Shown here: piece by piece, positions 4,295-48,483 of the stretch
How the letters are laid out: every line of letters starts with the position of its first letter
Position numbering within the stretch: position 1 is the first letter of the stretch
Assembly (NCBI GenBank): GCA_026415295.1
Contig: JAOAHJ010000026.1
Location: 11,638 to 75,637 of the forward strand
DNA length: 64,000 bases
Direction of reading: 5' to 3'
Source: Spirochaetota bacterium
GTDB lineage: Bacteria > Spirochaetota > JAAYUW01 > JAOAHJ01
Program-made: the position numbers and the translations under genes
Notes under the pieces: generated by a model
Databases searched by the model: none
Seen by the model: the letters and a program-made list of their open reading frames with translations, nothing else
What the model was told of the DNA's origin: nothing

Positions 4295-6196
4295 GTGAGA
4301 ACAATAGTAAAATTAATTAAAATTTTTATTAAAAGAAATTTCTTTTTATTCTTTATAACTTCAATAATGATTTTATTATCCTCAATTTTAACTATTTTTC
4401 AAGCTGAAGCAGGACAAGCTTTCTTCAGTATAATTAACCAAATTTCTTTTCAAAAAAATATAAACACCAATATTGATAAAGATAATAAGCAGACAAACTT
4501 CAAAAGTTTTATTTCAAATCTCCTTAAAGCAAGATCGATAGATGATGCTGTCAAAATTCTAGTAGAAAGTAGAAATCTTTTATACATTTTTCTATCAGGT
4601 ATTTTTATAATTTGTCTTTTTTTTCTTTATCAACTATTCTTTTATTTACAAAATTGTTTTAGTGGTACACTTGGGCTTGAAGTTTCCTTAGAATATTTAA
4701 GAAAAACTTTCAATAAATTACTTTTTTTACCATCAATATTTTACAAAGGAAAAGGTCAAACTGGTGATCTAATTTCGAGGTTAACAAATGATATTCAAAA
4801 TATAAGAGTTTACTCTTTATATATCCTTATTACTCTCTTTTCTACTCCTATTCTTGTTATATTTTCAGTTTTCATGTTACTTAAAAAAAGTTTAAAATTT
4901 ACTCTCGTAATAGTAGGTTTTGGTCTTATTGCTTTTTTGATAATTAATATTATTTCAAAAATTATCAAAAAATTTGCAACAATAAATATGCAAAAAATTT
5001 CAAAAACAACAGATTATATAAATAAAACAATATATGGTATTGATATAATAAAAATATTCAATAAAAATCAAAAAGAGAAAGAAAATTTTGATAGAGAGTT
5101 AAAAGAGTATAAAAAATCTTTTATTAATAGATTTTTTCTTGAATTCTCAGTAAGACCTTTAACAGAACTTATTGGAGCATCTATACTTATATTTGTACTT
5201 CTTGTAGGAGCTTATTTGATATGGCAGGGAAGAATGTCTATTGAAAAGATTTTTGGATTCATTATATACCTTCTTATTTTAAGTCCAAAGGCAAATGAAC
5301 TCTCATCTCTTCTCTCAAATATAAAGATACTGGAAGCTTCTATCGAAAGAATAGAAGAGATTCTGCTACTTGAAAATGAAGATATCCATTTTGGTAAAAA
5401 AGAATTAAAAAAATTTGAAGGTGAAATAGAATTTAAAAATGTATCATTTTCTTATGATAAATTTTATTCTAAACAAAATTTAATAAATAAAAACATAAGT
5501 AATGAAACCACGATTCAGTTTCCTCACCAGCTAAAAAATGTATCTTTTAAGATTAATAAAAATGAATTTGTTGCAATAGTCGGCCCTTCTGGTTCTGGCA
5601 AAAGTACAATTGTTAATTTAATCTCAAGCCTTATCTATCCAACTTCTGGAGAAATTTTATTTGATGGTGTTAACTATCAAGAATACACTCTTGAATCTAT
5701 TAGATACCACATATCTTATGTTACTCAAGAAACAATTTTATTTCCTGACACTATTTATAATAATATAGCTTTTGGTATAAATAATACTAATATGGATGAA
5801 GTAATTTATTATTCAAAAATTGCTTTTGCTTATGATTTTATTATGAAATTACCAGACAAATATAATACAGTTATTGGTGAAAGAGGGGCAAAACTTTCAG
5901 GTGGTGAAAAACAGAGAATTGCCATAGCTCGTGCTTTAATTAAAAAACCTAAAGTCTTAATATTTGATGAAGCTACATCAAATCTTGATAATGAATCAGA
6001 AAATTTTATAACAAAAGCTATGGAAAATATATCGAAGCTTCAGACTACTATTGTAATAGCTCATAGACTATCTACTATATTAAAAGCAGATAAAATAATA
6101 GTCCTAAAAGAAGGAAAAATTGTTGATATAGGTAAACATTTTGAACTAATCGAAAGATGTGAGTTATATAAAAATTTACAACAAATTAATTTTTAA
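4295..6196 (+). CDS. ABC exporter, fused permease/ATPase (MsbA-like type I exporter)
   Basis: Six N-terminal TM helices, Walker A GPSGSGKST, signature LSGGEKQRIAIARAL, Walker B ILIFDEATSNLD. Apparent GTG start 14 nt after preceding GT2 stop with GAGGGA SD. Confidence 0.9.
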   Translation: MRTIVKLIKIFIKRNFFLFFITSIMILLSSILTIFQAEAGQAFFSIINQISFQKNINTNIDKDNKQTNFKSFISNLLKARSIDDAVKILVESRNLLYIFLSGIFIICLFFLYQLFFYLQNCFSGTLGLEVSLEYLRKTFNKLLFLPSIFYKGKGQTGDLISRLTNDIQNIRVYSLYILITLFSTPILVIFSVFMLLKKSLKFTLVIVGFGLIAFLIINIISKIIKKFATINMQKISKTTDYINKTIYGIDIIKIFNKNQKEKENFDRELKEYKKSFINRFFLEFSVRPLTELIGASILIFVLLVGAYLIWQGRMSIEKIFGFIIYLLILSPKANELSSLLSNIKILEASIERIEEILLLENEDIHFGKKELKKFEGEIEFKNVSFSYDKFYSKQNLINKNISNETTIQFPHQLKNVSFKINKNEFVAIVGPSGSGKSTIVNLISSLIYPTSGEILFDGVNYQEYTLESIRYHISYVTQETILFPDTIYNNIAFGINNTNMDEVIYYSKIAFAYDFIMKLPDKYNTVIGERGAKLSGGEKQRIAIARALIKKPKVLIFDEATSNLDNESENFITKAMENISKLQTTIVIAHRLSTILKADKIIVLKEGKIVDIGKHFELIERCELYKNLQQINF

Positions 6197-19097: not shown

Positions 19098-20282
19098 TTA
19101 TATATTATTAATTAATTCTTCAATTTTGTTAATAATATGTTCTCTATTAAACATATTTTCTATTAATTTTAATGAATTTTCTATATTTATATTATTGTTT
19201 TTAGAATTTAAAATAAATTCAATTTTTTTTCTTATTTCATTTTCATCATTTTTACAAAAATAACCAATTTTATATTCATCAACTATCTTACCTACAGCTC
19301 CATCAGTAATTACAAATATAGGTTTTTGAGCATAAAGGTAAGTAAAAAATTTAGCAGGTATAGTTAATTTAATATAGTCATCTTCTATTAAAGGTAAAAC
19401 AGAATAATCACAATCTTTAATTAAAGAAATAACCTCCTTTTCATCAATTTTCTCAATAAAAATAATATTAAAAGCATTTAATTTATTTTTTAATTTAATT
19501 AAATTTTCCTTCTCATTGCCATCACCCACAATATAAAAAATAATATTCTCTTCTTTAAAACTTGAAAAAGCTTTTATTACATTCTCTAAACCTTGCATTT
19601 TCCCAATATTTCCAGTATAAACAAACTTAATTTTGCTTTTATCTAAGCTTATTTTATGATTTTCTATTTTAATATTTGAATTAAACCATTGAGGAATATA
19701 TATAATTTCTTTTTTAGTATATAATTTTAACCTATCTATAAAACCAGGACTACTAACTAAAATATAATCAAAGTATTTATAAATAAATTTAACAAAGTTA
19801 TCTAATAAAAATGAAAAAGTAAATTTTTTTTTAAACCCATAAGAATAAACAGCATCTGGCCAAATATCTAAACTCCATATAATAGATTTTTTTTTGAAAA
19901 TTTTTTTTATAAAAAAAACTGGAAAAGCTTGAGTAAGAGGACCTGTATGGTAAACAAAAACTAAATCTATTTTATTTGCAATTTTAAATACATAAAAAGA
20001 TGCTTTTATCATAAAATTTATATATGATAATATTTTAATAAAAACACTTTTACTATAACCAAGAATAGTTTTTAATCTTATTATATTTATGCCATTAATA
20101 TTTTCAATAACAAATTTATTAATATAACCTTGATAAAGTTTATCTCCTGGATATGATGGTATTTGTGTTAAAACTGTTACAGTAAAACCTCTATCTTTTA
20201 ACTCATAAGATAGATCATTTATAGAAAAAGGTTCTGGAAAATACCTTTCAGTAATTATCAGAATATTTTTTATTTTTTCCAT
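19098..20282 (-). CDS. Family 4 glycosyltransferase (WbjE/Cap5-type L-FucNAc transferase candidate)
   Basis: GT4 N-domain ILIITERYFPEPFSINDLSYEL; immediately downstream of fnlABC-like genes. Confidence 0.7.
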   Translation of the reverse strand: MEKIKNILIITERYFPEPFSINDLSYELKDRGFTVTVLTQIPSYPGDKLYQGYINKFVIENINGINIIRLKTILGYSKSVFIKILSYINFMIKASFYVFKIANKIDLVFVYHTGPLTQAFPVFFIKKIFKKKSIIWSLDIWPDAVYSYGFKKKFTFSFLLDNFVKFIYKYFDYILVSSPGFIDRLKLYTKKEIIYIPQWFNSNIKIENHKISLDKSKIKFVYTGNIGKMQGLENVIKAFSSFKEENIIFYIVGDGNEKENLIKLKNKLNAFNIIFIEKIDEKEVISLIKDCDYSVLPLIEDDYIKLTIPAKFFTYLYAQKPIFVITDGAVGKIVDEYKIGYFCKNDENEIRKKIEFILNSKNNNINIENSLKLIENMFNREHIINKIEELINNI

Positions 20283-21397
20283 ATATTTTTATTAATATAA
20301 TCAATATAACTTATTATTATTCTTGGTATTTTCTCTGAAACATTAGGAACAAAATAATCTTTAACTAATAAAAAATTTCTTTCTTTTCTATTTTGTTTTA
20401 CCGCTACTTCAATAGAATTTAATACAATATCTTTTCTAAAACCACTCATAATAACTGAAGCTTCTTCCATACCTTCTGGTCTCTCATGAGCTTCTCTAAT
20501 ATTTATAGCAGGAAAATTTAATATTGAAGATTCTTCTGTTATAGTCCCTGAATCAGATATAACTAAAAAAGAATTTATTTCAAGATTAACATAATCAGTA
20601 AAAGAAAATGGATTATGAAATATAATTAAATCATTAAAAATAACATTTTTTAATTGTTCAATTTTTTTTCTTGTTCTTGGATGGGTTGATACCATAATAG
20701 GAAATTTATATTTCTCTGCTATGCTATTTAATATATCTATAAAAGATAATAAATTATTCATGTTATCAACATTTTCTTCTCTATGAAAACTAACAACAAA
20801 ATATTTCTCTTTTTCAAGTCCTAACTTTTCAAGAATTTTAGAACTTTTAATCTTAGGTAAATAATAATTAATAACTTCATACATTGGGGAGCCAGTCTTT
20901 ATTATCCTTTCTGATGGGAAGCCCTCTTTTATTAAATATTCTCTAGCAATATCAGAATATGGTAAATTAATATCAGAAATATGATCAACAATTTTTCTAT
21001 TTGTTTCTTCAGGAACTCTTTGATCAAAGCATCTATTTCCAGCTTCCATATGAAATATTGGAATTTTTCTTCTTTTAGCTGGGTAAGCACATAAACAAGA
21101 ATTAGTGTCTCCTAATATCAATATAGCTTCAGGTTTAATTTTTTCAAATAATTCATCAATCTTAACTAACATATTTGATATTGTTTTAATATATGTATCA
21201 GATGCTGTTTCTAAAAAATAATCTGGTTTCTTTATTTCAAGATCATCAAAAAATATTTTATTTAATTCATAATCATAATTTTGCCCAGTATGAACAAGGA
21301 TATGATCAAAATATTCATCCATTTTACTAATAACTCTTGAAAGTCTAATTACTTCGGGCCTAGTACCAACTATTGTCATAACTTTTATTTTATTCAT
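20270..21397 (-). CDS. fnlC: UDP-2-acetamido-2,6-dideoxy-L-talose 2-epimerase (FnlC/Cap5G, non-hydrolysing WecB family)
   Basis: MNKIKVMTIVGTRPEVIRLS...HTGQNYDYELN; ORF track start at 21448 overlaps fnlB by 50 nt. Start at M18 (21397) abuts the fnlB stop and is more likely. Confidence 0.85.
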   Translation of the reverse strand: MNKIKVMTIVGTRPEVIRLSRVISKMDEYFDHILVHTGQNYDYELNKIFFDDLEIKKPDYFLETASDTYIKTISNMLVKIDELFEKIKPEAILILGDTNSCLCAYPAKRRKIPIFHMEAGNRCFDQRVPEETNRKIVDHISDINLPYSDIAREYLIKEGFPSERIIKTGSPMYEVINYYLPKIKSSKILEKLGLEKEKYFVVSFHREENVDNMNNLLSFIDILNSIAEKYKFPIMVSTHPRTRKKIEQLKNVIFNDLIIFHNPFSFTDYVNLEINSFLVISDSGTITEESSILNFPAINIREAHERPEGMEEASVIMSGFRKDIVLNSIEVAVKQNRKERNFLLVKDYFVPNVSEKIPRIIISYIDYINKNIWKK

Positions 21398-21398
21398 T

Positions 21399-22517
21399 TC
21401 ATACCTCTTCATAATAAGTATCAGGATTATCTGGATCAAAAATTTCATTTGCCCAAAAAACTGTTATCAAATCTCTATCGCCTATATTTGTTATGTTATG
21501 AGTATATCCTGGAGGAATATCAACAATTTTACAATCTTCTCCATCTACTATAATAGAATATTTTTCATTATTCAAAATATTCCTAAAAGATATTTTTGCT
21601 TTACCTTCAACTACACAAAATTTTTCAACTTTAGTATGATGATAATGGTTGCCTCTTGTAATCCCTGGTTTAGTCCTAGAAATAAAAATTTGTCCTGCAA
21701 AATTAGATTTAATAAATTCAAATAAATAACCTCTATTATCCTCATTTTTTATTGCTTTATATTCTAAATTACTTAAATCATAATAAGAAATCAAAGTAGA
21801 ATAAAGATACTTTTCAAATTTATTTTCAAAATTTGGTAATATATTATTCTCCCTTATTTTAATAAAATTTTTTAATAATTCTGCTAATTTAGCTAAGCTG
21901 ACCTCATAAAATGGAGTAGGATAAATAATTGAATCTACAACATCTAAATCATTTTCATAAATATGTCTTATTAAATTTTTAATAACATCATCTATATATA
22001 TAAATTTAATTACTTTTTCTGGATCATTAATAATAATTTCTTTATTATGCGTTAAGTTATAACAAAAAGTAGCAACTACAGAATTATAATTTGGTTTACA
22101 CCATTTACCAAATACATTTTGAAATCTATATATATAAACTTTATTACCTGTTCTTTTACTATAATTTAATAATAATTCCTCAGCTTCTTTTTTTGTTTTT
22201 CCATAAAGATTATCAAGTTCTGCTTGTATAGAAGAAGAAAATACAATTTTACATACTTTATTAAATTTTTCAAGAAAATTTATTAATTTGTTTGTAAGTT
22301 CAACATTTCCATAAAAATATTCAATTTCATTTTGTGGTCTATTTACACCAGCTAAATGGTATATAACATAAAAATTATTATTTTTTATTATTTCATCAAG
22401 TGTTTCAAAACTATTTATATCATATTCAATTATATTTAAGTTAATGTTTTTTTTTAAAAAAATTTTTAAATTCTTTCCTATAAATCCATTTGAACCTGTT
22501 ATGAGAATATTCTTCAT
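21399..22517 (-). CDS. fnlB: UDP-L-FucNAc pathway reductase (FnlB/Cap5F-like; SDR N-domain plus cupin-like C-domain)
   Basis: ITGSNGFIGKNL Rossmann start; C-terminal ISRTKPGITRGNHYHHTKVEKFCVVEG cupin signature as in Cap5F. Confidence 0.75.
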   Translation of the reverse strand: MKNILITGSNGFIGKNLKIFLKKNINLNIIEYDINSFETLDEIIKNNNFYVIYHLAGVNRPQNEIEYFYGNVELTNKLINFLEKFNKVCKIVFSSSIQAELDNLYGKTKKEAEELLLNYSKRTGNKVYIYRFQNVFGKWCKPNYNSVVATFCYNLTHNKEIIINDPEKVIKFIYIDDVIKNLIRHIYENDLDVVDSIIYPTPFYEVSLAKLAELLKNFIKIRENNILPNFENKFEKYLYSTLISYYDLSNLEYKAIKNEDNRGYLFEFIKSNFAGQIFISRTKPGITRGNHYHHTKVEKFCVVEGKAKISFRNILNNEKYSIIVDGEDCKIVDIPPGYTHNITNIGDRDLITVFWANEIFDPDNPDTYYEEV

Positions 22518-22523
22518 ATTTAT

Positions 22524-23552
22524 TTAGACTCCTTCATCCTCTTCATTTCTTAAAGCTTTCTGGATATATTCCAAATCTAATAAAATTTTCTTTAACTCTT
22601 CATTCGTTAGTCTTTTAGTATTATGTGAGTTATACTCTTCAACCTCTTCAATTTTCTTATCACCTTCATCAAAATATTTATGATAATTTAAATCTCTTGT
22701 ATCAGCAGGTATTCTATAGTAATCACCTAAATCAATAGATATTGCTGCTTCTTCTTTAGATAATAAAGTTTCATATAATTTTTCACCATGTCTTGTTCCA
22801 ATAATTTTAATTTCATTTTTAGCATTAAATATTTCAAGTAAAACTTCAGCTAATTGCTTAATAGTTGCTGCAGGAGCTTTCTGTACAAAAATATCACCCT
22901 GCTTTGCGTTATTAAAAGCAAACATAACAAGTTCAACTGCTTGCTCAAGACTCATAATAAATCTTGTCATATTTGGATTTGTAATTGTAATCGGCTCATT
23001 ATTTTTAATTTGCTTTACAAATAAAGGAATCACAGATCCTCTTGAAGCCATAACATTTCCATATCTAGTTGCTGTTAAAAGAGTTTCATCCTCTCTTAAA
23101 TTTCTCGACTTAGCAACCATTACTTTTTCCATTAAAGCTTTTGACATTCCCATTGCATTTATTGGATAAACAGCTTTATCTGTTGATAAAACTATAACTT
23201 TTTTTACTCCGCAATTTATTGCAGCATCTATTGTGTTTGCAGTTCCAATAATATTAGTTTTAACTGCTTCTAACGGATAAAATTCACATGAAGGTACCTG
23301 TTTTAAAGCAGCTGCTGCAAATACATAATCTACTCCTCTCATTGCTGAACAAATAGAATCATAATCTCTTACATCTCCTATATAATATTTTATTTTATCA
23401 TTTTTATATTTATGTCTTAGATCATCTTGTTTTTTCTCATCACGGCTAAATACCCTTATCTCTTTTATATCAGTTTGAAGAAATTTTTTTAATACTGCAT
23501 TTCCAAAAGAACCAGTACCACCAGTTATTAGTAAAACCTTATCTTTGAACAT
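22524..23552 (-). CDS. fnlA: UDP-GlcNAc 4,6-dehydratase/5-epimerase (FnlA/Cap5E/WbjB)
   Basis: MFKDKVLLITGGTGSFGNAV...IRVFSRDEKKQDDLRHKY...LSTDKAVYPINAMGMSKALME closely matches FnlA/Cap5E family. Confidence 0.85.
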   Translation of the reverse strand: MFKDKVLLITGGTGSFGNAVLKKFLQTDIKEIRVFSRDEKKQDDLRHKYKNDKIKYYIGDVRDYDSICSAMRGVDYVFAAAALKQVPSCEFYPLEAVKTNIIGTANTIDAAINCGVKKVIVLSTDKAVYPINAMGMSKALMEKVMVAKSRNLREDETLLTATRYGNVMASRGSVIPLFVKQIKNNEPITITNPNMTRFIMSLEQAVELVMFAFNNAKQGDIFVQKAPAATIKQLAEVLLEIFNAKNEIKIIGTRHGEKLYETLLSKEEAAISIDLGDYYRIPADTRDLNYHKYFDEGDKKIEEVEEYNSHNTKRLTNEELKKILLDLEYIQKALRNEEDEGV

Positions 23553-27308: not shown

Positions 27309-28070
27309 TCATTCTCCTAATATATTTCTTAAATCTTCATATTTTGGATAAGATATAACAACTGCTCTATGTGGCATATGAAACACAAACATTCCGCCAG
27401 CACCACAAGCATGAGCTCCTGCCTCTTTTGCAAATTTAAAATCATTAACATTTCTTGCTCCACCACAAGCAATAGTTGGAATTTTTAATTTTGAAGAAAT
27501 ATATTTTATTAAATTAAAATCATATCCTTCAAAGGTTCCATCCCTATCTATATTGTTTATAATTATTTCTCCAACTCCAAGTTGTTCCATTTTAAGTGCT
27601 AATTCTAAAGCTTCATAGTTTGTCTTTTCTGTTCCACTTTTAATATAGACCTTATATTTTCCAAAAAAATCTTTTTTTACATCTAAAGAAAACACAATAC
27701 TTTGATTTCCAAAAGAATCAGCAAGTTTTTTTATCAGATCAAAATTTAAAACTGCATAAGTATTTAATACAACTTTTTCTATACCTATTGAAAATAATTT
27801 TTTAGCATCTTCAAAACTTTTAATTCCTCCTCCATAACTAACTGGCATAAAAGCTTCGGATACAACTTCTTTTAGAAATTCAAAATCTATTTCTTTATTC
27901 AATTTAGAAGCTTCAATATCTAAGATAACTATTTCATCAACTTCTTTATCATTAAATATTTTAACAGTATTTATAGGATCACCAACATATTTATGATCTT
28001 TAAATTTTATCCCCTTATAAAATCCTCTATTTTTCATTAATAAAACAGGAATAATTCTTGTTTTTAACAT
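27309..28070 (-). CDS. HisF-like cyclase subunit paralog (WbuZ-type) of glycan amidotransferase system
   Basis: RIIPVLLMKNRGFYKGIKF...GDPINTVKIFNDKEVDEIVILDI, (beta/alpha)8 HisF signature; adjacent to PseA-like gene. Confidence 0.85.
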   Translation of the reverse strand: MLKTRIIPVLLMKNRGFYKGIKFKDHKYVGDPINTVKIFNDKEVDEIVILDIEASKLNKEIDFEFLKEVVSEAFMPVSYGGGIKSFEDAKKLFSIGIEKVVLNTYAVLNFDLIKKLADSFGNQSIVFSLDVKKDFFGKYKVYIKSGTEKTNYEALELALKMEQLGVGEIIINNIDRDGTFEGYDFNLIKYISSKLKIPTIACGGARNVNDFKFAKEAGAHACGAGGMFVFHMPHRAVVISYPKYEDLRNILGE

Positions 28071-28105
28071 TTTAGCCTCTTAAAAAAAATATAGATTTGA
28101 CATAT

Positions 28106-28735
28106 TCAATATCTTTCTATAAAATTTTTTAATAGTTGCATTCCAAATTTATGACTTTTTTCAGGATGAAACTGGACACCAATTATGTTTTCTTTCTCAA
28201 AAGAAGAAACAAAATCATATCCATAAAAAGTTGTTGTTAATATATCTGTTAAATCAAAACAATTAACTGCATAAGAATGAACAAAATAGAATCTATTTTC
28301 TTGATTTTCCATTCCATAAAATAATTTTGAATTCTTTCTTAAATTAACTATATTCCATCCCATATGAGGTATTTTTAAATTTTTATTTTCAATAGCTGTA
28401 AAATTAAATTTTTTTGTCTCGGCATTTATCCAGCCAAATCCTTTCTCTTTTCCTTCCTCACTTGATTTTGTCATAAGTTGCATTCCAAGACATATCCCCA
28501 ATATTGGAATTTTTTTAATTAACACTTTTTCATTTAATATATCAAAAAGATTTAATTCTTTTAAGTTATTTATTCCATTATCAAAAGCCCCAACTCCTGG
28601 TAAAATAAGCTTTGTAGCTTTATTAATATCATCAATATTTGAAGATATGATCGCAGAATATCCAGCTTTTTTTACCATGTTCAAAATTGAACCTGGATTT
28701 CCTAAATTATAATTTATAATTGTTATAAAATTCAT
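28106..28735 (-). CDS. HisH-like class I glutamine amidotransferase paralog (WbuY-type)
   Basis: GICLGMQLM catalytic Cys motif, HxE-type ending FHPEKS; 209 aa. Confidence 0.85.
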   Translation of the reverse strand: MNFITIINYNLGNPGSILNMVKKAGYSAIISSNIDDINKATKLILPGVGAFDNGINNLKELNLFDILNEKVLIKKIPILGICLGMQLMTKSSEEGKEKGFGWINAETKKFNFTAIENKNLKIPHMGWNIVNLRKNSKLFYGMENQENRFYFVHSYAVNCFDLTDILTTTFYGYDFVSSFEKENIIGVQFHPEKSHKFGMQLLKNFIERY

Positions 28736-43821: not shown

Positions 43822-43838
43822 TGTTCAATTTTTGAACA
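43822..43838. promoter_or_regulatory. Candidate operator: palindrome TGTTCA-ATTTT-TGAACA, 145 nt upstream of the wbpE-like start
   Basis: Perfect 6-bp inverted arms with 5-nt spacer, read directly from the sequence; second copy at 44505-44521. Confidence 0.45.
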
Positions 43839-43877
43839 ATTTAATATTTTAAAAAAATTAATCAATAAAAAATTTTT

Positions 43878-44501
43878 CTAATCAATATTTTTTAAAATAG
43901 CATCATCATTTATAAAATCAATAATATTAGTTAAATTACTATTAATATATTCATTATCATAAGAATATTTTAAACTTTCTAAAACTTTTTTTAACTCTTC
44001 TTCACTTAAATTCTCAGAAAACATATAAAAAGAACATTTTGCTTCTTCAAAAAAATATTTATCCTCTATTAAACTTTCTATATCCTTATAATTTATATTT
44101 TTATATATCAATCCAAGCTTAATACAACAATATTCTACTATAAAATCAAGCTGACTTTTACCAAATAGAAAAACATTTCTAATACCTTTATCTCTTTTTT
44201 CTTTTAGCATCCTCATTATTGCATCTTTATATATATAAGCATTTTTAGCTATTGATTTAAAGTATGTAAGACTTCTTTTATAAATAGCATTGAGCCCTTC
44301 TTTTGTTAAGATATAGCTATATGTTTTTTTATTTATTTTACTTATTTTTATTAAACCTGTATTAACTGCTTTTTTTAATATTAGATTTAACATTCCAAGA
44401 GATATATTTAAAGCTTTAGCGATCTCTCTCTGAGTAAAAGGTTCATTTCTTTTATTTTTTTCTAAAATATAAGATAAAAAATTATATTCATGATTGTTCA
44501 T
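43878..44501 (-). CDS. Small winged-HTH transcriptional regulator (family uncertain)
   Basis: FTQREIAKALNISLGMLNLILKKAVNTGLI helix-turn-helix; flanked on both sides by the same palindrome. Confidence 0.5.
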   Translation of the reverse strand: MNNHEYNFLSYILEKNKRNEPFTQREIAKALNISLGMLNLILKKAVNTGLIKISKINKKTYSYILTKEGLNAIYKRSLTYFKSIAKNAYIYKDAIMRMLKEKRDKGIRNVFLFGKSQLDFIVEYCCIKLGLIYKNINYKDIESLIEDKYFFEEAKCSFYMFSENLSEEELKKVLESLKYSYDNEYINSNLTNIIDFINDDAILKNID

Positions 44502-44504
44502 TTT

Positions 44505-44521
44505 TTGAACAATAATAAATA
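44505..44521. promoter_or_regulatory. Candidate operator: palindrome TGTTCA-TTTTT-TGAACA ending 3 nt before regulator ATG (minus strand)
   Basis: Extended arms TTGTTCA / TGAACAA; occupies the expected RBS position of the regulator gene. Confidence 0.45.
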
Positions 44522-44570
44522 AAAAAAAATTGTAAAGGAAATTTTTTATTAAGAATTATTAAATAAAAAA

Positions 44571-44774
44571 TTATGAAAAAATATTTAAAAAAACATCCAA
44601 AATTTTTTCTGCTGTTTTTCCATCGCCATAAAGAAGTTCTTTTCTTCCATAAATGGGCATTTTTTCAAGAATTTCAAGTATTCTATTTTTATCTGCACCA
44701 ACAATAAAGTTCCAACCAGAATCAACAAGTTCAACCCATTCAGTTGAATCTCTTAAAGTAATACAAGAGTTATT
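44571..44774 (-). pseudogene. 3' remnant (last ~65 codons) of a non-hydrolysing UDP-HexNAc 2-epimerase gene (WecB/WbpI family)
   Basis: Minus-strand translation NNSCITLRDSTEWVELVDSGWNFIVGADKNRILEILEKM...YGDGKTAEKILDVF matches the conserved C-terminal LRD-TERPE...LVG...YGDG region of WecB. Starts in frame directly after the TAA of the MCP gene; no upstream 300 codons present. Confidence 0.7.
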
Positions 44775-46637
44775 TTATTCGATTAATTTTTCACCTAAAA
44801 CATTTTCTACTTTAAATTTTTTAGCTACCTCTGAAAGCTTAATTGATTCCTCTTCCAGAATTTTTGCTATATTTGTAACTTTTTCTGAAGCATTAACTAT
44901 ATTTAATACACCTTTATTTATATCATCGATTGATGTCATTATTTCTCTCGAGCCTTGAGTTTGTTCAGACATCTGCTTTGCTATATCATTTATAAGTCTA
45001 CTTGTTTGAATAACTTGTTGAATAATTTTTTGTATTGTATTTTTTGATTTATCTATAAGATCAATAGCATCATTAACAGATTTAACATTTTCTTTAATTC
45101 TCTTTCCTATCTCTTCTGCTGTATTGCTTGACTGTTCAGCTAAAGCTCTAATTTCTGCAGCAACAACTGAAAAACCTTTGCCTGCCTCTCCAGCTCTTGC
45201 AGCCTCTATTGAAGCATTTAATGAAAGAAGGTTAGTTTGTTCTGTTAAATCATTTATCAAATTTAGTGAGGATTTTATCTTATTTGAATGATCTTCTATT
45301 ATTCTCATTTTTTCAACAATTTCATTTAAAAATTTCTGACCCTGATCTGCGTATTGAGATCCCTCTGCAATCATTCTATTTGTTTCTTCAACATTTTCAT
45401 TTAATTGATTTATTGCACTTAAAGACTCTTCTAATATTGCAGATATTTCTTCAACTGAGGTTGCTTCAGAGTTTGAAAAATCAGCAAGAACTCCTGTTAT
45501 CTTTCTATTATCTTCAATTATTTCCTTTAACTTATCTGAAAATTTGATAATTTCTCCAATAACTTCCTCAAAATTAGCAATCAAGTTATTAAAAGAATTA
45601 AGTAAATCATCCAGTTCTGCTGAATTTATCTTCTGTATCTTAAATCTTTTAAGAATTCCTGTATCTGAAACTTCCCTCATATGTCTTGAAAGCCTGTTAA
45701 ATGGACTAAGCAATCTATTTGATGTAATAACAGCAATTATTATAAAAATAACAAGAAATACTGCAGAAAAAAGTAAAAATATTTTAAAAACATTATTAAA
45801 TAATTCTTCAACAGTAGATAGGTGAAGTAAGGAAACAATTTTTATCTTTAAAAAATCTGAAGGAACAACTTTTATATAAAAAGTTTCTTTTTTATTTATT
45901 TTATCTCCTTCTTTAGTAGTATATTCTACTAAAAAGTTTGTTATCCTCGTTTTTTGGAAAAAATCTACAGGGGGAATATCATAGTAAGATTTGAAAATAT
46001 TGTAAGTTGCAAATAATATAGTTCCATCAGCCTTAAAAACTATAAGGTCAGAAGTAGTAGCTTTTATTTGCCTTTTCAACATAGAAACAAAAGCTGTCAT
46101 ATTGACATCAAAAGCTAGTATTCCTTCGAATAATCCATCATTGTTAAATATTGGTGTAGCTATAGTAACAGTAAGACTTCCTGTAACAGGATCATTGTAA
46201 AAATCAGTTACCAAAGTATCATTTTTATTTCTTACATCCTCATACCATCCTTTAAACCTTTTATCAAGCTCTTTAACATAAATAGTCTCATCATCAGCAA
46301 AATAAAGCATATTATCATCATACCATGCATATGCTGCTGATATATCTGTAAAACCTTTTGCATAATTAAAAAGAAGTTTCAAAATTTCAGATTGATTTCT
46401 TGTTTTAAAAATTTGCATCTCTCTTAATATCTCAACTTCTTTAGAAAACTTAAAAAAGATATCTTCAGTTAATCTTAAAGTATAATTTATAGATTGAACA
46501 ATATTTTCTTCTATATTGTTTATAAAAAAGTTTCTACCAAATGTTAAAAACAATATATTAAATAAAATTGGCATCAAAAGAATAAAAGAAAATGTTAGGA
46601 TAAATATTTTTGATTTAATTGACTTAAATATTTTCAT
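44775..46637 (-). CDS. Methyl-accepting chemotaxis protein (TM, Cache-like periplasmic sensor, TM, HAMP, MCP signalling domain)
   Basis: NLLSLNASIEAARAGEAGKGFSVVAAEIRALAEQS highly conserved MCP hairpin motif; two TM helices bracket ~260-aa sensor. Confidence 0.9.
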   Translation of the reverse strand: MKIFKSIKSKIFILTFSFILLMPILFNILFLTFGRNFFINNIEENIVQSINYTLRLTEDIFFKFSKEVEILREMQIFKTRNQSEILKLLFNYAKGFTDISAAYAWYDDNMLYFADDETIYVKELDKRFKGWYEDVRNKNDTLVTDFYNDPVTGSLTVTIATPIFNNDGLFEGILAFDVNMTAFVSMLKRQIKATTSDLIVFKADGTILFATYNIFKSYYDIPPVDFFQKTRITNFLVEYTTKEGDKINKKETFYIKVVPSDFLKIKIVSLLHLSTVEELFNNVFKIFLLFSAVFLVIFIIIAVITSNRLLSPFNRLSRHMREVSDTGILKRFKIQKINSAELDDLLNSFNNLIANFEEVIGEIIKFSDKLKEIIEDNRKITGVLADFSNSEATSVEEISAILEESLSAINQLNENVEETNRMIAEGSQYADQGQKFLNEIVEKMRIIEDHSNKIKSSLNLINDLTEQTNLLSLNASIEAARAGEAGKGFSVVAAEIRALAEQSSNTAEEIGKRIKENVKSVNDAIDLIDKSKNTIQKIIQQVIQTSRLINDIAKQMSEQTQGSREIMTSIDDINKGVLNIVNASEKVTNIAKILEEESIKLSEVAKKFKVENVLGEKLIE

Positions 46638-46944
46638 ATTAATACTCTTTTATTTATATTATTAATTATTAATTTTTTGATTGATAATCACTATTAATTT
46701 TCGACTTTGTAAAATTTTTAATAGTATTTTAAAAAAATTAAATATTAAAAAACATTTTACAAAATTTAAAAATAAATTTAAAACTAATAAAGTTGATTTA
46801 AACATTGAAATTAAAAGGAGAAAATATATGAAAAAATAAGTTTTCACTTCTTTATGTAGATTTTATAAAAAAAAATTAAAAAATCAAAATATTTTTGAAA
46901 ATTTTATTATTTTTAAACCATATATTTTATAATCTTTTTTACTT

Positions 46945-48483
46945 TTAATCTATTTTAAAATTTTTTATACTTTCATCTATCTTCTTAGATGTGCTCAAAA
47001 TATCTTTAGCAATCCTTCCCAGGATTTCACTACTTTCAAGAAATTTTTGTGTAGTTTGATTTATATCTTCAACTGCTTTTGATAACTCTTCGTTTACATT
47101 TGCTTGCTCAGAAATAGATTCTTTAATCTCTTTTAAAACATTTGATGAAGAAACATTCAACTCAAGAATACTTTTAAGCTTTTCTTTTGAACTTTTAATA
47201 GATTCAAGCGATTCTTCCACAATTTTTTCATTTTCTTTAATAATTTTTTCAATTTCAGAGACTGTATTTTCTGCTTTTTCAGCTAAATTTCTTATTTCTT
47301 GAGCAACAACAGCAAAACCTATTCCTACTTCCCCAGCTTTTGAAGCTTCAATTGAAGCATTTAAAGCTAAAATATGTGTTTCATCAGTTATCTCATAAAT
47401 AAGCTCAATAGATTTCCTTATTTTTTTTGAATAATCAAAAATTTTAGATATAGAATCCACAATACTATCAATATATTTTGTAGCATCAATAGCTTTTTTA
47501 CTTCCTTCGATTATCTTTTCAGAACTTTCTTTTGCATTTTCTGAAATCATCTTAATAGAAGAAGTAGCTTCTTCAATTGCTGAAGATATTTCTTCAAGAG
47601 ATGAAGCTTGAGAATTAATGGATTCTAAAAAATTGCTCATTAAAGAATTATTTTTATAAGAAATATTATTTAATCTTTCTGTAATATTTTTAAGGCCATT
47701 TATAATATTTATAAGATTATCAACCATTATATTTACAGAATTTGATAGTTTACCTATTTCGTCTTTTTTAATTTTTATGTTTATTTTTCTAAGATTACCG
47801 TCCGCAATAATTTTTGTATGATCTGATATCTTATTAATAGGAGCAATAATCTTTTTTTCTACATATATTATTAAAATTATATCCATAATAAAAACAAAGA
47901 TAATAACTGCAAGAAGTCTCCAGTACATCTTAGAAAGAATTTTTACATAAAAGCTTACATCATAGTCAACACCAATAATAGCATAAACTTCGCCCTGATC
48001 ATTTAATAAAGGTTCAAAATAGGAAACAAAAGTTCCATATTCATCGGTATAAGGTTTTCTGGTAAATGTAGCTTGTTTTGTTTTGTAAGCTTCAACTAGT
48101 TCTTTAGGTGGATAATCATATACTGAAAGGTAATCTTTTTTAAATAATTCATAATCAAATTCATTTGACATTAAAAAAATAAAATTATCATCTTTTGGCT
48201 CCATAATATAAAGGTAAATAAAACCAAATATTTTAGCTATTCTATTAGTTTGATCAACAATTTTTTTATATTCCTCCCAATTATTGGCAAGCTCTTTTAT
48301 TTTATTTACATCTGTATATTCAGGAATTAGTTTTGCTATTTCTATACCTTTTTTCATTGTTTCTTTAAAATCTTTAAATATTAACTCATATAATATAAAA
48401 TTTCTAATTAACGAAAATGTAAAAATTACAATAAATAAAGCAAAAATAAAAATAATTAAAGCAACTCTAAATCTAATAGACAT
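46945..48483 (-). CDS. Methyl-accepting chemotaxis protein (paralog)
   Basis: [35 protein letters not shown]; GGAGG SD upstream of ATG. Confidence 0.9.

Follow-up and report, generated by a model that had tools for sequence, protein, structure and literature searches.

A palindrome embedded in the start codon as predicted operator of a MarR_EPS-related regulator heading surface-glycan loci

Introduction

Surface-glycan loci, including those for LPS/LOS, capsule and nonulosonic-acid flagellin glycosylation, shape host interaction in spirochaetes and in many other bacteria. To our knowledge, the transcriptional control of these loci is mostly unknown, and the 'MarR' genes that head them are landmarks for which we know of no target. 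The 64-kb stretch of DNA analysed here (hereafter, the window) places the gene of a 207-aa winged-helix regulator in front of a glycan operon of about 25 kb, with a copy of the palindrome TGTTCA-N5-TGAACA on either side of the gene. This locus raises the question of which protein recognizes the palindrome, and of what this recognition would do to the regulator gene and to the glycan genes.

Results

Two exact palindromes bracket the regulator gene

The features on which the analysis bears are the following.

43878 to 44501, minus strand: gene of the 207-aa regulator, with a winged helix-turn-helix (residues 1-65), a long helix (67-104) and a Rossmann/flavodoxin-like alpha/beta domain (109-206)
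44493 to 44513, no strand assigned: predicted operator O_R, a perfect 21-bp palindrome ATTGTTCA-N5-TGAACAAT with its core at 44495-44511
43822 to 43838, no strand assigned: predicted operator O_G, TGTTCA-N5-TGAACA, 145 nt 5' of the first glycan-operon gene
19098 to 43677, minus strand: presumed target operon of about 23 co-oriented genes, its extent judged from shared orientation and short gaps
43677 to 42511, minus strand: DegT/WbpE-like aminotransferase gene, first gene of the operon
44571 to 44774, minus strand: remnant of a UDP-GlcNAc 2-epimerase gene, its last 67 codons plus the stop codon (…CITLRDSTEWVELVDSGWNF…DVFLNIFS-stop)

TGTTCA-N5-TGAACA has two exact matches in the window (43822-43838 and 44495-44511), whose base composition is 23% GC, and dinucleotide-preserving shuffles gave an expected count of 0.00. 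When up to two mismatches were allowed, four further sites appeared, which is the chance level. The scan of the source organism covered the 64-kb window and does not delimit a regulon. The centres of the two half-sites, TGTTCA and TGAACA, lie 11 bp apart, that is, one helical turn. O_R contains the ATG of the regulator gene (44501-44499, minus strand), reading TGTTCAAAAA-ATG-AAC-A on the coding (minus) strand, and O_G is located 40 nt 3' of the regulator stop codon and 145 nt 5' of the aminotransferase ATG (43677). The original prediction, made from the letters of the window, had proposed that two 17-bp palindromes bracket the 207-aa regulator gene (44501 to 43878, minus strand), the first of them 145 nt from the start of the WbpE-like operon, and had named a random genome-wide frequency of the motif, with no intergenic enrichment, as a finding that would speak against it. 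Both copies are indeed exact, the bracketing and the 145-nt distance stand, the position of the first copy is right, and within the window the frequency is not random. The second copy had been placed at 44505-44521, which is 10 nt off; nor does it end 3 nt before the start codon at the place of a ribosome-binding site, as had been supposed, since it covers the ATG and no Shine-Dalgarno (SD) sequence was found there.

The regulator, the DegT gene and the downstream glycan genes are all on the minus strand. The operon encodes the DegT aminotransferase, an NDP-sugar dehydrogenase, a CapD-like dehydratase, a second DegT protein, a hexapeptide acetyltransferase, NeuB, a hydrolysing-type 2-epimerase, a CBS-nucleotidyltransferase, a CMP-transferase and a flippase, together with a HisH/HisF-like pair, glycosyltransferases and FnlA/B/C-like genes. 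This content suggests a pathway to a CMP-nonulosonic acid of the legionaminic-like type (CapD-like dehydratase, LegC-like DegT, hexapeptide acetyltransferase, NeuC-type epimerase, NeuB, CBS-nucleotidyltransferase and CMP-transferase), and the FnlA/B/C-type trio at 20270-23552 (minus strand) suggests a UDP-L-FucNAc-like pathway. The HisH/HisF-like amidotransferase pair is found at 27309-28735 (minus strand).

On the other side of the regulator gene, the epimerase remnant (44571-44774) begins right where the chemoreceptor gene upstream of it stops. At the corresponding place, the related locus L001 has an intact 372-aa epimerase gene (4652-5770) with its own TGTTCA-N5-TGAACA at 4605-4621, a third putative operator, suggesting that a deletion in the window lineage removed both the 5' part of the epimerase gene and this third site. 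Two genes for methyl-accepting chemotaxis proteins lie directly 5' of the regulator region in the window (44775-48483) and in L001 (846-4460), a conserved synteny; no palindrome was found in front of these chemotaxis genes in either locus.

The regulator is a long-form relative of MarR_EPS

Above its gathering threshold, Pfam HTH_24 (PF13412) matches the regulator at residues 23-52 (25.0 bits, cutoff 21.9), and the Pfam MarR models remain below theirs (PF01047, 14.8 against 24.6 bits; PF12802, MarR_2, 16.6 against 27 bits), as do TrmB and Rrf2. The NCBIfam model TIGR04176, MarR_EPS, aligns with residues 12-87 at 42.7 bits (E = 4.7e-11), short of its curated cutoff of 88 bits. TIGR04176 describes a single-domain form of about 105 aa, whereas the window protein has 207 aa and an extra domain (109-206). 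The genomic context is that of TIGR04176, beside EPS/surface-glycan genes, both for the window operon and for related loci. The predicted DNA target, a point of comparison set here and not part of the curated definition, also appears equal to that of bona fide TIGR04176 members (see below). By the curated threshold the window protein is not a member, and the term that suits it best is long-form MarR_EPS relative.

An AlphaFold (AF2) model of the regulator (pLDDT 92) comprises a winged helix (1-65), a 38-residue helix and a four-stranded alpha/beta domain (109-206). Foldseek assigns the N-terminal part to MarR/RosR-like winged helices (probability 1.0, TM up to 0.65 on the target), and dimerization probably occurs through the single long C-terminal helix, in a RosR-like manner. 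Modelled separately, the C-terminal domain (pLDDT 82) adopts a generic Rossmann/flavodoxin-like fold, for which Foldseek returned no significant match in the PDB, the best being the VpsT receiver domain (E = 0.02). No sequence-related solved structure was found for the regulator.

A word-indexed search retrieved three close relatives (51-60% identity), and an exhaustive profile search retrieved 1357 relatives at E <= 1e-3, 310 of them at E <= 1e-10. Most of these proteins have 160-250 aa, and the match spans the winged helix, the long helix and the start of the second domain ('GxSDLDFIVE'). Relatives with a named source come from Spirochaetota MAGs, where they are annotated merely as 'winged helix/MarR family regulator'. 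All 51 aligned relatives match the TIGR04176 model (E <= 0.01), and 28 of 153 family proteins begin with Met-Asn. A protein-pattern scan of metagenome contigs found no relatives.

The palindrome accompanies the regulator gene across lineages

Conservation was assessed in 13 lineages, comprising the window and the numbered loci L001, L002, L003-L006, L007, L008, L009/L010, L011, L012/L013, L014, L015, L016 and L017, in which regulator identity is about 30-60% and GC content 23-49%. L006 is an uncultured Brachyspira MAG and L009/L010 are Treponemataceae; the L007 and L008 regulators share 43% and 36% identity with the window protein, and L016 and L017 belong to genomes of 5.5 Mb and 2.3 Mb with 42-43% GC. 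A palindrome with at most one mismatch is present at or upstream of the regulator gene in 13/13 lineages, and no other such site was found elsewhere in the 130 kb fetched for the first 11 lineages or in the L016 and L017 DNA examined. In eight lineages (the window, L001, L002, L003/L006, L007, L008, L012 and L014), the site overlaps the annotated ATG. Extra copies lie upstream of DegT in L003 (1461), L004 (2172) and L006 (6765); in L001, one follows the regulator at the contig end (6997). Glycan genes (DegT, dehydratases, NDP-sugar dehydrogenase, flippase) follow 3' of the regulator in the window, L003, L006, L007 and L008, and likewise in L016, L017, L038, L071, L093 and L110.

When 20 sites were compiled, each of the 12 core positions proved conserved in at least 18, the consensus being tTGTTCA-N5-TGAACAa with flanks that favour T and A, and the 5-nt spacer was free to vary. 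As judged from this alignment, the pattern is the expected signature of sequence-specific recognition by a protein dimer.

Several neighbouring elements were noted in individual lineages. L016 (4996-5081) and L017 (5566-5652) carry tandem pairs of exact palindromes, 69-70 bp apart, with 350-900 bp of GC-rich REP-like repeats (CCCTCTCCC…GAGAGGGG) between the pair and the regulator gene; one of these repeats in L017 is preceded by a short copy of the regulator 5' end (ATGAACAAAGAATTAATCATACTTGAGCAG…), which looks as though the original start had been displaced by an insertion. An element, AACTTGTTTCGGCAGTA, reminiscent of the ops/JUMPStart antitermination elements, is located downstream of the operator or regulator in L014 (586-603) and L015 (about 236-252), and its L017 version, GTGTTTCGGCCGGCAGAT, follows the site at 5636-5652 by about 35 nt; the element of L014 and L015 is absent from the window operon leader. 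L012 has a gene for a NusG-like paralogue (2203-2727) directly 5' of the regulator. Two unrelated lineages, L003 (2984-3632) and L017 (4677-5481), have toxin-antitoxin pairs of the HepT/MNT type (nucleotidyltransferase plus HepT) within their glycan loci or next to them.

A blind motif scan recovers family regulators

In the inverse test, public metagenome contigs were scanned for the exact sequence TTGTTCA-N5-TGAACAA, yielding at least 120 loci (708 kb) chosen by the motif alone, whose six-frame ORFs were then searched with the family profile. Among the matches listed, a family relative is encoded in 16 of 120 loci, and in 15 of these 16 the site overlaps the start codon of the relative or lies at most 160 nt upstream of it. 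Most of the at least 120 loci must be chance matches, and the scan recovers family regulators far above chance. About 12 of the 16 relatives among the matches listed are proteins of about 105 aa, and all seven short proteins tested qualify as bona fide members of TIGR04176, scoring 108-146 bits where the cutoff is 88 bits. The genes that follow short-form regulators belong to glycan synthesis and encode a PseB-like dehydratase, a CBS-DegT protein, an epimerase/dehydratase, an SIS isomerase and a flippase. The predicted operator is common to the curated short-form TIGR04176 family and to the long form in the window.

Short-form genes also display features of their own. At L038, L049, L071, L108, L109 and L110, MarR_EPS genes are preceded by tandem operators in the layout -35 TTTACA/GTTCA-N5-TGAAC(G/A)-n-TATAtT/GTTCA-N5-TGAACAA (here and below, slashes between hexamer and half-site mark junctions); the first palindrome, slightly degenerate, fills the spacer between -35 and -10, and the second reaches from the end of the -10 to the ATG. 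A 165-aa ORF without Pfam match directly follows the short-form regulator in two independent loci, L071 (13311-13805) and L110 (10171-10665), and may be a conserved partner gene.

The palindromes overlap predicted promoters

Two sigma-70-type promoters are predicted at the window palindromes.

44509 to 44536, minus strand: predicted regulator promoter, -35 TTTACA (44536-44531), 16-nt spacer, -10 TATTGT (44514-44509)
43838 to 43865, minus strand: predicted glycan-operon promoter, -35 TTGATT (43865-43860), 16-nt spacer, -10 TAAATT (43843-43838)

In 16 of the 20 compiled sites, the palindrome is preceded at a distance of 19-23 nt by a -35-like hexamer (at least 4/6 matches to TTGACA), compared with 24% of random positions in the same DNA (p = 2e-7), and in nine sites the hexamer has at least 5/6 matches, compared with 2.9% (p = 2e-9). 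The four sites without such a hexamer are that of L002 and the upstream members of tandem pairs. This fixed distance implies that the -10 abuts or overlaps the promoter-proximal half-site, so that the operator would cover both the -10 and the transcription start. Such junctions are seen in L007 (TTGACA-17/18-(A)TATTT/GTTCA), L015 (TTGTCA-17-TATTAT/TGTTCA) and L012 (TTGAAT-17-TAAATT/GTTCA). In the window, the predicted regulator -10 overlaps the left half of the operator, with a distance of 19 nt from -35 to palindrome that recurs in L001 and L003/L006; the same TTTACA-16-TATTGT was also proposed by a promoter scan (9/12 matches). At the glycan operon, the last T of the -10 TAAATT is the first operator base, and the identical geometry, TTGAxx-16-TAxxTT/GTTCA, is present at L001 6997, at DegT in L003/L006 and in L012. 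With the operator at about -7 to +10, this is the geometry of a repressor. Transcription would start at 44502-44500 for the regulator and at about 43828-43834 for the glycan operon.

The predicted -10 of the regulator ends 7 nt before the ATG (5-9 nt in orthologues). This proximity, together with the missing SD-like sequence before the ATG, is most simply read as a leaderless mRNA, and the regulator transcript is probably of this kind. A crude test found no SD in 15 of the 36 window ORFs, so its absence at the regulator is not unusual. A leaderless mRNA would account both for the frequent location of the start codon within the operator and for the Met-Asn at the head of many family proteins.

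The same region can be read differently at the glycan operon. The regulator could be an activator or a dual regulator, with the true operon promoter being TTAAAA-16-TATAAT (43796-43769), O_G lying near -68 of this promoter, the protein bound there recruiting RNA polymerase, and O_R still acting in repression. The promoter scan does score this candidate at 10/12, above the TTGATT/TAAATT reading, and the second exact site of L016 and L017, 69-70 bp upstream of the promoter-proximal one, has a position that can be activating or auxiliary. Promoter hexamers are, however, easily found in AT-rich DNA, and a 10/12 match weighs little in a region of 23% GC where 14 promoter-like sites were found against 12.4 expected from shuffles. 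Moreover, the -35-like element 19-23 nt upstream is kept in 16/20 sites, including all those of the DegT type (the window, L001 and L003/L006), and also in higher-GC loci, where chance hexamers are less likely. We therefore regard activation at O_G as unlikely. The original prediction had left the choice between repressor and activator open, and the promoter geometry favours the former.

An autoregulated repressor is the most probable explanation

Taken together, the comparisons make it likely that both palindromes are operators of the winged-helix regulator encoded between them, an autoregulated repressor whose second operator lies at the glycan operon promoter. The regulator would bind each palindrome, most likely as a dimer. 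Each operator would begin at a sigma-70-type -10 element or within it and extend over the transcription start, so that the bound regulator would block RNA polymerase. At O_R, which covers the regulator's own predicted -10, start site and ATG, the outcome would be negative autoregulation; at O_G, a like repression would act on the promoter of the nonulosonic-acid/aminosugar glycan operon of about 25 kb. A palindrome over the gene's own predicted -10 and +1, one feature of MarR-type autoregulated repressors as a functional class, is what sequence and conservation place here. Release from the DNA, and hence glycan expression, would presumably follow from the sensing of a small molecule or partner by the C-terminal Rossmann-like domain, a step that the structural model suggests and that we offer as speculation.

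The idea of an autoregulated regulator that also controls the downstream sugar operon, already present in the original prediction, is strengthened by the 13/13 lineages, by the DegT-side sites (L003, L004, L006 and L001) and by the blind scan. The accompanying suggestion of phase-variable glycan expression found no support, as neither an invertible element nor a simple-sequence tract is present; condition dependence through the C-terminal domain is plausible.

Could the motif instead belong to another, unlinked transcription factor, or be a restriction-modification or recombination site, its adjacency to the regulator being coincidental? The link between protein and motif is drawn from sequence comparison, and one helix-turn-helix gene was examined, which leaves some room for this view. 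Against it, motif and gene family occur together in every one of the 13 lineages, 16 of 120 motif-selected loci among the matches listed adjoin a family gene, 15 of these 16 having the site where that gene starts, and this co-occurrence spans GC differences of phylum level as well as short and long protein forms. We consider such a coincidence very improbable.

Even less credible is a role for the palindromes as RNA hairpins, a terminator at 43822-43838 or a device that sequesters the start codon at 44495-44511. Either copy can form a hairpin of 6-9 bp, the former lies just past the regulator gene and the latter contains the AUG; these hairpins are, however, weak (-5.0 and -6.3 kcal/mol) and AT-rich, a terminator scan found none at the palindromes, there is no Rfam match, and the sites keep fixed distances from -35-like hexamers. 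Over the 20 sites, the stems are near-invariant with no compensatory changes, the loop varies, and predicted hairpin energies range from -0.7 to -7 kcal/mol, which together argue for recognition by a protein rather than for RNA structure.

Finally, the ends of a mobile cassette, transposon or inverted repeat were rejected because the similarity between the two window copies stops after about 21-25 nt and orthologues place the sites differently, and the LexA 'Cheo box' (GAAC-N4-GTTC) was rejected because orientation and spacing differ.

Discussion

The type of system proposed here is a textbook one, an ordinary autoregulated repressor; rather than a new principle, the analysis contributes a target for a family so far uncharacterised. 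What appears to be new is the assignment of an operator across the family, as well as the long-form architecture: our literature search found no description of the motif, of an operator or mechanism for TIGR04176/MarR_EPS, or of this operator among Brachyspira glycan regulators. The 'TTGTTCA' of PMC545781, in a table of candidate binding sites, belongs to an unrelated TGTGA-N6-TCACA-type site. What the analysis offers, for a family of hundreds of members, is an operator consensus (tTGTTCA-N5-TGAACAa), a predicted promoter architecture and a candidate sensor domain, and with the consensus, regulon prediction and simple binding or reporter tests become possible.

We tentatively extend the proposal to a broader one, which we hold as a possibility with rather less than even confidence: TGTTCA-N5-TGAACA may be the universal operator of the MarR_EPS superfamily, short and long forms alike, in several phyla, typically embedded in the start codon of leaderless genes, with the sensor of the long forms feeding back a nucleotide or nucleotide-sugar signal. 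If so, the operator would itself impose the N-terminal Met-Asn of the protein (ATG AAC A), the sensor domain of the long forms would return that signal onto the transcription of the surface-glycan locus, and the motif would lend itself at once to regulon prediction for this uncharacterised family of surface-glycan regulators. The 'MarR' at the head of the Leptospira rfb locus might be included.

Among known systems, the closest is TIGR04176 itself. The window protein shares with these proteins of about 105 aa the winged-helix signature QR..A...G.SLG..N and a place at the head of glycan/EPS loci, and bona fide members (108-146 bits) have TGTTCA-N5-TGAACA on their own start codon. It differs in having double the length, of which an additional Rossmann-like domain makes up about 100 aa, and in its single operators, where tandem O1/O2 sites are common at short-form promoters. 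In the Leptospira rfb (LPS O-antigen) locus, which is said to be 'beginning with MarR' (PMC10958091, PMC9736851), a winged-helix regulator likewise serves to mark the 5' end of a spirochaete surface-glycan locus; no operator or mechanism for it is described in these two papers.

By structure, the best match to the N-terminal 90 residues is Halobacterium RosR (PDB 6qfd, 6ez1), with an rmsd of 1.7-2.2 A and a TM of 0.61-0.65 on the target. The two proteins have in common a long helix after the winged helix and, for the window protein as a prediction, binding to a palindrome. RosR is, however, an archaeal oxidative-stress regulator with 24-26% identity over about 90 residues, no C-terminal alpha/beta domain and another DNA motif.

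Classical MarR repressors (MarR, MepR, OhrR, HpaR, ZitR/AdcR) are dimeric winged-helix proteins that bind 16-20-bp palindromes over the -10/+1 region of their own gene and of an adjacent operon, with negative autoregulation. The predicted palindromic operators of the window, over the promoters of the regulator and of the adjacent operon, follow the same plan, and Foldseek matches the window protein to MepR, HpaR, ZitR and AdcR (probability 1.0). Where MarR has an N/C-terminal helical bundle, the window protein probably dimerizes through one long C-terminal helix; in place of the intradomain ligand pocket there is a separate alpha/beta domain, and the predicted operator is embedded in the start codon.

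Rex, a redox-sensing repressor, combines a winged helix with an NAD(H)-binding Rossmann domain and recognizes TTGTGAA-N4-TTCACAA. The window protein resembles it in the order of its domains, winged helix first and Rossmann-like domain second, and in a predicted AT-rich palindromic operator at promoters. By contrast, the half-sites and their spacing are not those of Rex, the Rossmann-like domain is far smaller (four strands) with no recognisable GxGxxG, no Rex family is among the Pfam/NCBIfam matches of the regulator, and the Foldseek match to the Rex-family protein RSP (3wg9) is weak (E = 0.12). SorC/CggR proteins, in which a winged helix is joined to a sugar-phosphate-binding SorC domain of about 250 aa, differ in that the C-terminal domain of the window protein has about 100 aa and in that the top Foldseek match (8r3g) reaches a TM of 0.28 with an rmsd of 18 A. 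We conclude that the window protein follows a Rex-like or CggR-like domain logic while belonging to neither family.
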